From NCBI GenBank assembly GCA_040005235.1, contig JBDTZG010000006.1, positions 22,203 through 86,202 on the forward strand: a stretch of 64,000 nucleotides of DNA. Reading direction: 5' to 3'. The translations under genes and the position numbers were made by a program. The notes under the pieces are model-generated. The model was not told the origin of the DNA, did no database searches, and saw nothing but the letters and a program-made list of their open reading frames with translations. This stretch comes from Acidobacteriota bacterium. Its GTDB lineage: Bacteria; Acidobacteriota; Thermoanaerobaculia; Multivoradales; UBA5704. Position 1 is the first letter of the stretch; each line of letters starts with the position of its first letter. Positions 55,310 to 58,351 of this stretch are shown piece after piece.

Positions 55310-55451
55310 GAGCGGCTCCTTGCTCGGAATCGAAAGGTCGGTTCCGGGAGGTGTGGTCGGCAAATCGTTGAAGGGAAGACTAGTGTCCGGACGGGGCCGT
55401 CCGCAAGGCGCCGGTTTCGTTCCGCCCGCATCTCGTGTCCAAGCAGGTAGG

Positions 55452-56126
55452 ATGAACCTACAAGCCCTAGCGATCCCGATCCGGATTCCGATGATGACCC
55501 CCAGGGAGCAGAGCCCCGCCTCGTTCCGAGCGCTCCCCCTCGATTCGGTCGAGGACGAGCGGCGGCTGCTCGCCGACTATTCGCGCGGCGATCGCGCCGC
55601 GGCCGAACGGCTGGTGGCGAGTACCTACCGCCAGGTGTTCGCGTTTCTCGCCAAGCTTTGTGGCGGCGACGCGGATCTGGCGGCCGATCTCACGCAGGAC
55701 ACCTACAAGAAGGCGTGGGACGCCCTCTCCCGGTTCGACGGCCGGTCGAGATTCGCCACCTGGCTCTGCCGGATCGCCTACACCACGTTCCTCAATCACA
55801 TCCGCCGGCCTCGGCGCGTGGTGCAGATTGAGGACGACGTGGCGGATCAGGTCGCCGATCCCGATCCGAGCCCCGAGGATCTCGCAGGGCTCGCGGTCTC
55901 GGGCGAGCGCCTGCGCCACGCGGTGATGGCTCTGCCCGAGCCGCTGCGCGAAACGATCACCGCCCATTTCTGGGGCGGCACCGACATTCCGGACATCGCC
56001 CGTGACGAGGGGGTCACCGCCGTGGCGATCCGCAAGCGGATCAAGAAAGCGCTCGCCGTGCTCGCGCATTCGCTCGATAGAACCTTCGGCTCGTCGACCG
56101 AAGCCACCGGGGAGGACGCGCGATGA
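55452..56126 (+). CDS. ECF sigma factor
   Basis: Region 2 (LTQDTYKKAWDAL...FATWLCRIAYT) and region 4 (ITAHFWGGTDIPDIARDEGVTAVAIRKRIKKA). Its stop overlaps the next gene's start (ATGA). Confidence 0.7.
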   Translation: MNLQALAIPIRIPMMTPREQSPASFRALPLDSVEDERRLLADYSRGDRAAAERLVASTYRQVFAFLAKLCGGDADLAADLTQDTYKKAWDALSRFDGRSRFATWLCRIAYTTFLNHIRRPRRVVQIEDDVADQVADPDPSPEDLAGLAVSGERLRHAVMALPEPLRETITAHFWGGTDIPDIARDEGVTAVAIRKRIKKALAVLAHSLDRTFGSSTEATGEDAR

Positions 56127-58351
56127 ACGCCAACGCTGAGCGAAACGAAATCCGCGAGAGCGAGCTGCGCCGCCTGTTGTCGGAAGCGCCGCCGACCGGC
56201 CCGGCGCTCGATCCGCCGGCCGACCTCTTGGCCAAGCTGCAGGAAGGGATTCCGGACGCGATCGAGCTGCATCCCGCGCTGCGCGGCGGCGAAAACGTCC
56301 TGCCGTTCCGGGCGCCCGCGCCGCGGACCCCCATGGCCCGCCGCAATGTCTGGCTGATCGCTGCGAGCCTGCTCGCGATGGCCGGGGCGGGCTACTTCTC
56401 CTTGCGGGTGCGCGACGTGGTTTCCGTGCCGGAAAATGTGGCGGCCCATGAGTCGGTGGAAGCGGCGAACGGGCGCGGCGCGATTCCGACCGGGGCCGAC
56501 TCGGCCCCTCTGCCCAAAACGCCGGCCGAAGGCACCGAAGCCGGGATTCAATCCCCTTCGGGATCTCCCGCAGCTCCGCCGCCGCCGGCCGACCTCAAAG
56601 CGCTCGGCTACCTCGGCGGCCCACCGGCTTCGGAGGCGGCCCCGGAAAAAGGCAAGCTCTGGGACCGACTCGACGAGACTCGTCGGCAGGCGACTCCGGC
56701 AGAGCAGGCCCGGGCCAACGAGGCGCTTCGGCGGCGCGAGGGCAGGCAGGCGAAAACCGAGCAGCCCGTGGAGGTCCCCGAGGGCGTGGAAGGCGGAGTC
56801 GAAGGGGGAGTGCCCGGAGGGGTCGCGGGCGGCGTGGTGGGGGGAGTTGTAGGCGGCGTGCCCGGCGGAGTGATGACGGGCGCCGCGGCTCCCTTCCCGG
56901 CGACCGAGCCGGCCAAGCCGGCCCCCTCGACCGGCGGAACGGCCGAGCCGAACGACCAGCCGTACGCCGACACCTTCTTCGAGAGCGCCGGGGTCAATCC
57001 GTTCATCGACACCGACGAGGACCGGCTCTCGACGTTCGGGCTCGACGTCGATACCGGTTCCTTCACGGTGATCCGGCGCTACCTGGAAGAGGGCCATCGG
57101 CCGCCGAAGGATGCGGTGCGTCTCGAAGAGGTGGTCAACTTCTTCGATTATGCCGATCCGGCTCCGGCCCACGGCGATTTCGCGGTTCGCCTCGAAGGCG
57201 CGCCGAACCCGTTCGGTCCGCAGGGCAAAATCAACGAACGCCACCGCCTGGTGCGGGTGGGGATCAAAGCCCGCGAGATCGATGCCGTCCGGCGCAAGCC
57301 CTCGGTGCTGACCTTCGTGGTCGACATCTCGGGCTCGATGGACCAGGAGAACCGGCTCGGACTGGTGAAGCGGGCGCTTGAGCTTCTGGTCGCCGAGTTG
57401 CGCGAAGACGACAGGGTGGGCCTGGTGATCTTCGGCAGCGAGGCGCGCACGATTCTCGAACCGACGACCGACCGCTCGGCGATTCGGGAGGCGATCGAAC
57501 GGCTGCGGGCGGAAGGCTCGACCAACGCCGAGGCGGGATTGAACCTCGCCTACGACGTGGCCCGTCGGGCCTACCGTGCGAACGGCAACAACCGGCTGAT
57601 CCTCTGTTCCGATGGGGTCGCGAATGTCGGAAACACCGGCCCGCAATCGATCCTCAAGCGGATCGGTAAGGAGACTCGGGCAGGCATTGAGCTTTCGACC
57701 GTCGGATTCGGCATGGGCAATTACAACGACGTGCTGATGGAGCAGCTGGCAGACAAAGGGGACGGACGTTACGCCTACGTGGACACGATCGAAGAGGCGC
57801 ATCGGATCTTCGTCGACGGGCTCGCCGGAACGCTCCAGACGATCGCCAAGGACGCCAAGGTGCAGGTGGAATTCGATCCTACAGTGGTCCAGAGCTGGCG
57901 CCTGCTCGGTTACGAAAACCGCGACATCGCGGACGACAAATTCCGCGACGACACGGTCGATGCGGGGGACATCGGCGCGGGACATGCGGTGACCGCGCTC
58001 TACGAGGTGAAGCTCGCCGAGCGGCCGGCGGCGGGTAAACCGAACCCGGCGATCGCCAGGGTTCACCTGCGCTGGTTCTCGAAGGAATCCGAGCGGGTGA
58101 TCGAATCGGTCCAGGCTCTGCCGCTCGACCGGCTCGCTCCCAAGTGGCAATCTGCGAGCCCGGCGTTCCGGTTGGCGACCCTCGCCGGCCAGTTCGCCGA
58201 GATCCTGCGCGGCTCCCCTTGGGCGAAGGGCGAGAGTCCGGTCGAAGTCGCCCGCCGCGCGCGAGAGCTTGCCGATCAGACCTCGGGCAAGCTGCACACC
58301 CAGGCGATCGATCTCGCGACATTGGCGGATTTGGCGGCCCGGGCGAGGTAG
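56123..58351 (+). CDS. Anti-sigma-factor N-domain/TM fused to a periplasmic vWA plus DUF3520-like (YfbK-type) module
   Basis: Cytoplasmic N-domain, one TM (VWLIAASLLAMAGAGYF), a (GGV)n 9-bp tandem repeat, and a vWA MIDAS motif (VVDISGSMD...S...T). 742 aa. Translationally coupled to the ECF sigma gene. Confidence 0.6.
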   Translation: MNANAERNEIRESELRRLLSEAPPTGPALDPPADLLAKLQEGIPDAIELHPALRGGENVLPFRAPAPRTPMARRNVWLIAASLLAMAGAGYFSLRVRDVVSVPENVAAHESVEAANGRGAIPTGADSAPLPKTPAEGTEAGIQSPSGSPAAPPPPADLKALGYLGGPPASEAAPEKGKLWDRLDETRRQATPAEQARANEALRRREGRQAKTEQPVEVPEGVEGGVEGGVPGGVAGGVVGGVVGGVPGGVMTGAAAPFPATEPAKPAPSTGGTAEPNDQPYADTFFESAGVNPFIDTDEDRLSTFGLDVDTGSFTVIRRYLEEGHRPPKDAVRLEEVVNFFDYADPAPAHGDFAVRLEGAPNPFGPQGKINERHRLVRVGIKAREIDAVRRKPSVLTFVVDISGSMDQENRLGLVKRALELLVAELREDDRVGLVIFGSEARTILEPTTDRSAIREAIERLRAEGSTNAEAGLNLAYDVARRAYRANGNNRLILCSDGVANVGNTGPQSILKRIGKETRAGIELSTVGFGMGNYNDVLMEQLADKGDGRYAYVDTIEEAHRIFVDGLAGTLQTIAKDAKVQVEFDPTVVQSWRLLGYENRDIADDKFRDDTVDAGDIGAGHAVTALYEVKLAERPAAGKPNPAIARVHLRWFSKESERVIESVQALPLDRLAPKWQSASPAFRLATLAGQFAEILRGSPWAKGESPVEVARRARELADQTSGKLHTQAIDLATLADLAARAR

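Follow-up and report, generated by a model that had tools for sequence, protein, structure and literature searches.

The gene pair at positions 55452 to 58351 of the window, by which we mean the whole 64-kb stretch of DNA that was analysed, probably forms a self-contained, autoregulated two-gene ECF module of a Thermoanaerobaculia-like acidobacterium, in which a membrane protein would act as the anti-sigma factor of the stress-type sigma factor encoded directly ahead of it. We put the probability of this reading at roughly 0.75. Observed are the anatomy and domains of the two genes, their strict co-occurrence and coupling, and the conservation of a promoter motif and of an N-terminal module; that the partner physically binds sigma, what it senses, and how it lets sigma go are inferred. 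Pairs of ECF sigma and anti-sigma factors are among the main ways in which bacteria signal across the membrane. The features of the locus are the following.

55413..55442, + strand: putative autoregulatory ECF-type promoter, upstream of the sigma ATG
55452..56126, + strand: ECF (group 4) sigma-70 factor gene, 224 aa (Pfam, TIGR02937)
55611-55817, + strand: sigma2 of the ECF sigma, ~aa 54-122 (Pfam Sigma70_r2, 1.2e-14)
55905-56057, + strand: sigma4 of the ECF sigma, ~aa 152-202 (Pfam Sigma70_r4_2, 1.9e-7)
56123..56126, + strand: ATGA start/stop overlap of the sigma TGA with the partner ATG, read from the sequence
56123..58351, + strand: putative single-pass anti-sigma factor, whole gene, 742 aa
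56123..56338, + strand: cytoplasmic N-terminal module, proposed sigma-binding domain, aa 1-72
56339..56419, + strand: transmembrane helix, aa 73-99, hydrophobic core VWLIAASLLAMAGAGYFSL (AF2 helix)
56420..56974, + strand: long, mostly disordered periplasmic linker, aa 100-284 (pLDDT)
56780..56875, + strand: GGVx peptide repeat, eight 12-nt units (TRF and in-frame dissection)
56975..57229, + strand: vWF_A N-terminal domain (PF12450), aa 285-369 (Pfam 5e-24; high pLDDT)
57308..57802, + strand: VWA domain with complete MIDAS, aa 396-560 (Pfam VWA 6.7e-19, VWA_2 4e-20)
57827..58324, + strand: YfbK_C/DUF3520 domain (PF12034), aa 569-734 (Pfam 6.2e-33)

The reading frame at 55452-56126 matches Pfam Sigma70_r2 with 54.3 bits (cutoff 24), Sigma70_r4_2 with 31.1 bits (cutoff 25.7), and TIGR02937 with 86 bits against a cutoff of 42.9, and Pfam returned no match to the r3 or r1.1 domains. 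Sigma2 and sigma4 alone, at scores above the family cutoffs, identify the product as an ECF (group 4) sigma-70 factor, in agreement with the ECF sigma of the initial annotation. Its best solved relatives are 8z6g_B, an unnamed RNA polymerase sigma factor (6e-14), and 6in7_B, a sigma-H factor (7.3e-14), with SigK and CnrH also among them (CnrH at 9e-10). Translation may alternatively start at 55491/55494; the start at 55452 is supported by the conserved spacing between promoter and ATG.

The promoter consists of a -35 element GGTTTC (55413-55418), a 16-nt spacer, and a -10 element CGTGTCCAA (55434-55442), followed after a gap of 9 nt by the sigma ATG. A dyad GTTTC-N15-18-TGTC is found in 23 of 37 orthologous upstream regions, with a maximum of 8 in shuffled sequences. 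The strict pattern was seen once in the 64-kb window, where 0.02 occurrences were expected, and a single time in each of 23 loci linked to the sigma gene, where it invariably sits immediately ahead of the sigma ATG; close variants are present in other loci. The conserved GGTTTC-N16-CGTGTCCAA is thus a putative autoregulatory promoter, and since the ATG lies only 9 nt past the -10 element, the mRNA made from it is apparently leaderless or nearly so. The 64-kb window holds no further copies of the motif, and hence no regulon member is named.

The partner gene begins within the end of the sigma gene, the ATGA overlap reported by the initial annotation being read directly from the sequence. In its 742-aa product the vWF_A, VWA, and YfbK_C domains score 84.5, 69.2, and 115 bits, each above the Pfam gathering score, and alignment shows the MIDAS residues (D401-x-S403-x-S405, T467, and D497) to be invariant among 72 homologues. 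The three domains and the intact DxSxS...T...D MIDAS make this a vWA protein of the YfbK type. AF2 predicts one transmembrane helix, at aa 73-99, and alignments show W77, L78, A80, A81, S82, and G90 of this region to be conserved. The Arg residues ahead of the helix predict an N-in orientation, which would place the vWA module outside. The earlier description of a large extracytoplasmic vWA (MIDAS)/DUF3520 module of the YfbK type agrees with the Pfam matches, the invariant MIDAS, and this predicted topology. Foldseek matched the VWA domain to the vWA structures 4fx5, 8s05/5a8j, and 6fpy. The linker, at aa 100-284, has a pLDDT <50 across aa 103-181 and 211-277 (AF2), contains a conserved QPVEVPE motif and one predicted helix (aa 178-209), and is highly variable in both length and sequence between homologues. 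A TonB-dependent-receptor-like N-terminus ('ITVAGESPLLDERR...NVGGNESGQQS') was suspected in the linkers of homologues P0041, P0063, and P0074; Pfam gave no confirmation.

Comparison of 79 related genomic loci showed a clear association between the N-terminal part of the membrane protein and the sigma gene. All 42 loci whose partner has the long N-terminal extension carry an orthologous ECF sigma gene immediately upstream of it, in the same orientation, whereas the flanks retrieved for the 27 loci with YfbK-like homologues that lack it contain no ECF sigma. Most of these 27 are from Chloroflexota, and Poribacteria, Planctomycetota, and Ignavibacteriales contribute one locus each. The sigma gene is therefore co-conserved with the membrane protein, which had been named beforehand as something the pairing depends on. 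The junctions of the 42 sigma-linked loci comprise 38 4-nt overlaps (ATGA/GTGA), 2 1-nt overlaps, 1 2-nt gap, and 1 broken reading frame. The VWA domain is missing from many family members and the N-terminal module is retained across ectodomain variants; a VWA-less member, P0133, is ATGA-coupled to an orthologous sigma (E 1.6e-86). Because so many members have no VWA, MIDAS-based sensing cannot be the mechanism of the whole family. The relatives of the window pair are Acidobacteriota MAGs, and flanking genes are conserved with the pair in the nearest relatives only, with no protease or other partner gene conserved near it.

The N-terminal module itself is small. AF2 predicts, with low to moderate confidence, a first helix at aa 12-20 and a second at aa 34-42, the latter preceded by an invariant PP (P31, P32); the rest of aa 1-72, after this two-helix part, is a variable segment rich in Arg. 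Alignments show conservation of L19, P31, P32, L35, I43, and P44, and the consensus of the ~45-residue module reads E-R-x-I-x-R-x-L ... E-P-P-x-G-L-L-x-x-I-K-x-E-I-P. A profile search with the N-terminal alignment in a word-indexed protein database returned only 4 fragments; an exhaustive search of representatives returned 365 clusters, in which the module is fixed in position at residues 1 to ~85.

The initial annotation had proposed to look for an anti-sigma fold of the zf-HC2/RskA type in the first ~90 residues, and here a two-helix module is predicted instead. Across the 41 N-termini examined from the family, Pfam gave no zf-HC2/RskA match with E<=10, the HxxxCxxC motif is absent from the N-terminus, and aa 1-75 contain no Cys and one His. 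A four-helix anti-sigma domain of class I is out of reach for a module with only two short helices predicted, and the missing motif and Pfam match likewise separate it from zinc-binding anti-sigma factors. No Pfam anti-sigma family was detected in the N-terminus, the scan of the 41 family N-termini yielding only noise besides DUF3379, the anti-sigma family associated with ECF28. The DUF3379 resemblance is weak (9 of 41 N-termini, best E 0.0027), and it vanishes in a scan of 110-residue pieces taken from nine relatives and from the window copy. A profile search against PDB sequences gave chance-level matches only (best E 0.078).

The NCBIfam model NF052375, 'antisigma', is matched at E<=10 by the N-terminus of 37 of 41 relatives, all sub-threshold (best E 1.6e-8), over profile positions 36-107. 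The itemised matches start at position 33 or 36, reach up to 144 of 217, and score 17-33 bits against the >=100 bits of the equivalog, and the resemblance is one of local similarity, not membership. Neither the copy in the window nor L002, the relative nearest to it, matches the model at all; their homology to the matching sequences is taken from the N-terminal alignment.

In CnrY-type anti-sigma factors, the sigma-binding part is formed by two short helices ahead of the membrane anchor/partner-binding part (CnrH-CnrY structure 4CXF). The window module is like class II CnrY/NepR in size alone, no sequence similarity to CnrY or NepR having been detected. We offer only as a tentative and somewhat doubtful proposal that this cysteine-free, two-helix module of ~45 residues is a distinct minimal anti-sigma class, neither class I/ZAS nor a recognisable relative of CnrY/NepR, which would serve a large and mainly acidobacterial family (at least 365 clusters at 50 % identity) with a vWF_A-N and YfbK_C sensor core and an optional MIDAS VWA insert.

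The architecture of a sigma factor with a vWA partner is already catalogued as ECF226/ECF289 putative anti-sigma, and the window locus is categorically nothing new. ECF226 (Acidobacteria, Planctomycetes, Verrucomicrobia) has at +1 a one-TM putative anti-sigma factor with DUF3520 and von Willebrand domains (Casas-Pastor 2021, NAR 49:986; PMC7826278; bioRxiv 10.1101/2019.12.11.873521 supplement). The same sources give Acidobacteria as the majority of the group, with no conserved genes past the pair, report no conserved promoter motif, and list ZAS/CAS-type anti-sigma domains in the table (PMC7826278; bioRxiv 10.1101/2019.12.11.873521 supplement). ECF289 (Proteobacteria), derived from the old ECF20 group, likewise has at +1 a one-TM putative anti-sigma factor with DUF3520 and von Willebrand domains (PMC7826278; bioRxiv 10.1101/2019.12.11.873521 supplement).

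Compared by group description, the window pair agrees with ECF226 in its phylum (its relatives are Acidobacteriota), in the +1 position of a one-TM partner with DUF3520 and von Willebrand domains, and in flanks that are unconserved beyond the nearest relatives. It differs in the clear promoter motif conserved among the sigma orthologues and in an N-terminus without a zinc motif, where ZAS/CAS domains are listed for ECF226. ECF289 partners are like the window protein in the make-up of the ectodomain, in lying at +1, and in having one TM, and a self-regulating promoter is inferred in both; the ECF289 -10 CGTCTxA resembles the CGTGTCYAA / GCGTCTAA of the window sigma and its orthologues, while the phylum and the -35 element (CCCAAGGA in ECF289, GGTTTC in the window) differ. 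E. coli YfbK and other stand-alone vWF_A-VWA-YfbK_C proteins, close homologues of which occur in Chloroflexota and other phyla, have the same three-domain ectodomain and intact MIDAS, but their N-termini are short and lack the conserved cytoplasmic module, and an ECF sigma gene does not stand next to theirs. No characterised function for YfbK itself was apparent in the titles and abstracts of a literature search, and literature searches found no experimentally studied vWA/DUF3520 anti-sigma factor or pair. Together, the co-conservation and the published classification of the architecture support, at the level of sequence, the sigma/anti-sigma pairing that had been proposed.

We envisage that the sigma gene is driven by its own ECF-type promoter, GGTTTC-N16-CGTGTCCAA, on a probably leaderless mRNA, and that ATGA translational coupling would keep sigma and partner at a fixed protein ratio. 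The first ~45 conserved cytoplasmic residues, with their two short helices, would bind the sigma factor and sequester it at the membrane, and the disordered spacer of ~185 residues, including the GGVx tract, would position the folded vWF_A-VWA(MIDAS)-YfbK_C ectodomain on the periplasmic side. A change in the ectodomain, for instance when a ligand from the envelope or from outside is bound in a metal-dependent way or is lost, would lead to inactivation of the anti-sigma factor, most likely by regulated proteolysis, and to release of sigma, which would also raise transcription of its own operon.

The partner might instead be an envelope protein, an adhesin or an envelope-maintenance factor with an uncleaved signal-anchor, which is co-transcribed under sigma control and inhibits nothing, so that co-conservation would reflect operon or regulon membership only. 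Neither Pfam nor PDB searches recognise an anti-sigma domain in it, and by Foldseek the ectodomain fold is like that of vWA proteins that serve as adhesins or bind ligands, among them pilus tip adhesins, ITIH1, and ArnB, both as this alternative would have it. However, a plain membrane anchor needs no conserved cytoplasmic motif of ~45 residues, and this motif is confined to the versions linked to a sigma gene (42/42 vs 0/27), is retained across ectodomain variants, and resembles a curated anti-sigma model; the 4-nt translational coupling, moreover, is typical of stoichiometric partners. We consider a purely envelope role unlikely. A FecR-like regulator with a positive or dual role, whose N-terminal fragment would be needed for sigma activity after proteolytic release, would have an anatomy identical to that of an anti-sigma factor, and nowhere do the sequence data tell a pro-sigma activity from an inhibitory one; class I inhibitors, moreover, do not resemble the minimal N-terminal domain. 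Against this, neither the full-length protein nor its first 80-110 residues match the FecR family, no TonB-dependent transducer gene was identified in the immediate flanks as judged from the ORF list, these flanks are not conserved with the pair, and the published classification treats the architecture as anti-sigma. Such a role appears improbable to us, and an anti-sigma partner is the reading we prefer.

A further alternative concerns the GGVx tract, which could be a slipped-strand contingency locus, so that rapid change of linker length from strain to strain would tune signalling. The initial annotation had described a slippage-prone (GGV)n repeat of 9 bp at 56790-56880 that could vary between strains; the tract proved to consist of eight 12-bp units at 56780-56875 (EGVE GGVE GGVP GGVA GGVV GGVV GGVP GGVM, that is, EGVE and 7 x GGVx), with TRF periods of 12 and 24 and 67-90 % matches. 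Unit number does vary, with 0-8 units among 120 homologues and 4-7 among relatives at >=74 % identity, but slippage finds no support in the DNA. The units are 63-67 % identical, synonymous codons differ from unit to unit, and exact matches extend over at most 5 nt at offset 12 and at most 9 nt at offset 24. These are not the near-identical, mispairing units of simple-sequence contingency loci, and the scrambled codons make the tract a poor slippage substrate. Every length change is in frame and at the scale of species divergence, and the tract is missing from about half of the sigma-linked family. A contingency locus is thus very improbable. The tract, which AF2 predicts to be disordered, is a variable, disordered periplasmic spacer in this model. 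An artificial long GGVx query found nothing significant; among its 22 weak matches, 2 carry the JGI name 'periplasmic protein TonB', and in one of these, P0283, the same tract stands just ahead of a Pro-rich stretch and a TonB-C-like motif. This is only a hint that a GGVx periplasmic spacer may be common to TonB-like proteins.

DUF3520/vWA-type anti-sigma factors (ECF226, ECF289) are known from genome surveys only, with ligand, structure, and regulon unreported. To the published architecture this analysis adds the conserved promoter motif, the VWA-less members, and GGVx as a variable disordered spacer, and it disposes of the idea of a hypermutable switch in the GGVx tract. The promoter motif provides a reporter handle, and the minimal N-terminal module a handle for a test of sigma binding. 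The MIDAS domain is dispensable in many members, which points to vWF_A-N/YfbK_C as the conserved sensing core of the family.

The ECF sigma factor gene and the membrane protein gene directly downstream of it probably encode a sigma/anti-sigma pair, a reading to which we assign a probability of about 0.75. The locus is laid out as follows.

55413-55442: ECF-type promoter motif, with GGTTTC at 55413-55418, a 16-nt spacer and CGTGTCCAA at 55434-55442; the sigma ATG lies 9 nt beyond
55452-56126, + strand: ECF sigma factor ORF, 224 aa, Sigma70_r2 and Sigma70_r4_2
56123-58351, + strand: vWA protein ORF, putative anti-sigma, 742 aa, with three Pfam domains well over gathering score: vWF_A (aa 285-369), VWA (aa 396-560) and YfbK_C/DUF3520 (aa 569-734)

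The sigma product exceeds the TIGR02937 ECF cutoff, a Pfam scan found no domains in it beyond the two listed, and its nearest solved structures are all ECF sigmas: 8z6g_B (6e-14), 6in7_B (sigma-H factor, 7.3e-14), SigK and CnrH. The stop codon (TGA) of the sigma gene and the start codon of the downstream gene share an ATGA, as the initial annotation had noted. Long ORFs also run antisense to the vWA gene (e.g., 55847-58297 on the - strand; one is of 816 aa) and most likely arise, as is common, from the high G+C content; the + strand frame is strongly supported by Pfam and by homologues.

The pairing of the two genes was examined in 79 loci, one genome per species, by ORF calling and HMM searches. 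Ten are cut by a contig end, 42 encode a vWA protein with a long N-terminal extension and 27 one with a short N-terminus. An orthologous ECF sigma gene lies immediately upstream on the same strand in 42/42 long-extension loci, joined by a 4-nt ATGA/GTGA overlap in 38, a 1-nt overlap in 2 and a 2-nt gap in 1, with an assembly-broken ORF in the last. No ECF sigma gene was found in the fetched flanks of the 27 short-N-terminus loci, 23 of which include at least 600 nt upstream; these are mostly from Chloroflexota, with single loci from Poribacteria, Planctomycetota and Ignavibacteriales. This contrast shows that the sigma gene is co-conserved with its partner; a lack of such co-conservation would, for the initial annotation, have refuted the pairing. 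Gene neighbors beyond the pair are not conserved save in the two nearest relatives. At one Acidobacteriota locus (L027:2527-5518), the usual ATGA ends the sigma gene yet the vWA ORF opens 682 nt later, probably through an assembly frameshift or as a pseudogene. Two near-identical pairs with identical locus coordinates (L036 and L038) lie on two contigs of one Acidobacteriota MAG (CAWHUF01), to be explained either by a recent duplication of the pair or by redundancy among the binned contigs.

The extension that accompanies the sigma gene is not a classical anti-sigma domain. The first ~280 residues of the 742-aa protein have no Pfam match, and the zf-HC2/RskA fold proposed for the N-terminus was without a match at E<=10 in all 41 family N-termini. 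The N-terminus contains no cysteine, and a profile search of PDB sequences found no related solved structure. Alignments instead reveal a conserved module of ~45 residues, comprising helix 1 (ERxIxRxL), a short linker to EPP and helix 2 (xGLLxxIKxEIP), followed by an Arg-rich segment that varies between homologues and then by the TM helix (WLIAASL). Two profile matches link this module to anti-sigma factors. The NCBIfam profile NF052375, "anti-sigma factor," matches this region in 37/41 relatives (positions 36-107 of the 217-position profile, with a best E of 1.6e-8), well short of its 100-bit family cutoff; it does not match the window's own copy or its closest relative, in both of which PPTGPAL is inserted between the two helices. 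DUF3379, a family named as ECF28 anti-sigma, is weakly matched by 9/41. A four-helix class I domain would need more residues than the module has; its size is similar to that of class II domains (CnrY/NepR), an assignment backed by no sequence similarity. An exhaustive profile search found the module in 365 clusters (50% identity), in every case within residues 1 to about 85. It follows the sigma factor from one type of ectodomain to another, which is how a sigma-binding domain should behave.

In an AlphaFold2 model built from a 72-homologue alignment (mean pLDDT 73), the N-terminus has two short helices, aa 12-20 and aa 34-42, predicted with low to moderate confidence. A long TM helix spans aa 73-99, and disordered segments at aa 103-181 and 211-277 are separated by a single helix. 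The ectodomain, aa 285 to the C-terminus, is folded with confidence. Arg residues ahead of the TM helix lead us to expect an N-in topology with the vWA module outside. Foldseek neighbors of the ectodomain are vWA-plus-beta-sandwich proteins (4fx5, ArnB/VWA2, ITIH1). MIDAS residues D401, S403, S405, T467 and D497 are unchanged across the 72 homologues, which bears out the MIDAS-bearing vWA domain first described. An Acidobacteriota MAG encodes a 100% identical protein, and relatives come from Thermoanaerobaculia/Holophagales MAGs. The wider family is more varied.

Ectodomain composition among 149 listed representatives of module-bearing clusters
vWF_A-N + VWA + YfbK_C: 22
vWF_A-N + YfbK_C without VWA: 45
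YfbK_C only: 15
vWF_A-N only: 6
None of the three: 61, mostly short sequences

Three longer scanned sequences among the 61 have CarboxypepD_reg with weaker Ig-like matches. In many of the proteins that lack VWA and MIDAS (P0130-P0272; L080:480-1988), vWF_A-N runs straight into YfbK_C; the one looked up, P0133, is joined through an ATGA to an orthologous ECF sigma gene (E 1.6e-86). With VWA missing from so many members, ligand binding through the MIDAS cannot be how the family as a whole senses, and judged by domain content the conserved core would be vWF_A-N/YfbK_C.

Upstream of the sigma genes, a GTTTC-N15-18-TGTC dyad occurs in 23/37 regions (shuffles <=8). The strict promoter pattern has 1 occurrence in the 64-kb window, against 0.02 expected, so no further regulon members were seen there, and in related loci it is confined to sigma genes with one stray match excepted. 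This placement suggests that the operon is probably autoregulated. The motif-to-ATG spacing is the same across related loci, which suggests a leaderless or near-leaderless sigma transcript and supports the start at 55452. Many orthologues have a sigma N-terminus some 13 residues shorter than the one here (55452-55494), and in-frame ATGs at 55491/55494 offer alternative starts; promoter spacing favors 55452.

Alternative readings of the membrane protein are that it is a co-transcribed envelope protein or a FecR-like positive regulator. Both sit less easily than an anti-sigma factor with a cytoplasmic module that is conserved and sigma-specific, and the same is true of a third proposal, that the GGVx tract is a slippage-driven variable linker. 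The tract, initially described as a slippage-prone 9-bp repeat, has TRF periods of 12 and 24 and consists of eight in-frame 12-nt units at 56780-56875 (EGVE GGVE GGVP GGVA GGVV GGVV GGVP GGVM). Synonymous codons vary between units and the longest exact runs are 5 nt (offset 12) and 9 nt (offset 24), which makes it a peptide-level repeat and a poor substrate for slipped-strand mispairing. It is predicted to be disordered, its GGV units number 0-8 (mostly 4-6) in 120 homologues, and roughly half of the broader sigma-linked family does without it; these are the traits of a variable, low-complexity spacer in the periplasm. In P0283, a 90-aa fragment annotated by JGI as "periplasmic protein TonB", a GGIEGGVAGGVEGGVPGGVVGGVVGG tract directly precedes PPPPP and a TonB-C-like motif; such tracts may be a common periplasm-spanning spacer in these bacteria, a hint only, as the search E-value for P0283 is not significant. 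In some homologues (P0041, P0063, P0074, P0092; about aa 170-250), the linker helix is replaced by a segment reading "ITV(A/T)(G/A)ESPL(L/M)DERR(I/M)STGA...DRVNVGGNESGQQS", whose likeness to the N-terminus of acidobacterial TonB-dependent receptors found no Pfam support.

The sigma/anti-sigma reading thus stands, with the repeat redescribed and an N-terminal domain shorter than the classical fold. Most likely, the N-terminal module would sequester the sigma factor at the membrane and the ectodomain would be the sensor of an extracytoplasmic cue. Once the anti-sigma had been inactivated, for which regulated proteolysis is the probable route, the released sigma factor would amplify its own operon. 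Casas-Pastor et al. (2021) had already described this design when they reclassified ECF sigmas: their ECF226 (Acidobacteria 56%, Planctomycetes 33%, Verrucomicrobia 11%) is listed with a putative +1 anti-sigma with one TM, DUF3520 and von Willebrand domains and no other conserved context, and ECF289 of Proteobacteria has the same anti-sigma architecture. The window pair shares every describable feature of ECF226, as judged by the group's published description. No conserved promoter is reported for that group, in contrast to the conserved GGTTTC-N16-CGTGTCCAA at the window sigma gene and most related loci. Literature searches found no experimental study of a DUF3520/vWA-type anti-sigma, and the titles and abstracts retrieved for "YfbK" included no functional study. 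The finding is correct and ordinary: this bacterium carries one more example of a kind of ECF sigma/anti-sigma pair that is catalogued yet experimentally untouched.
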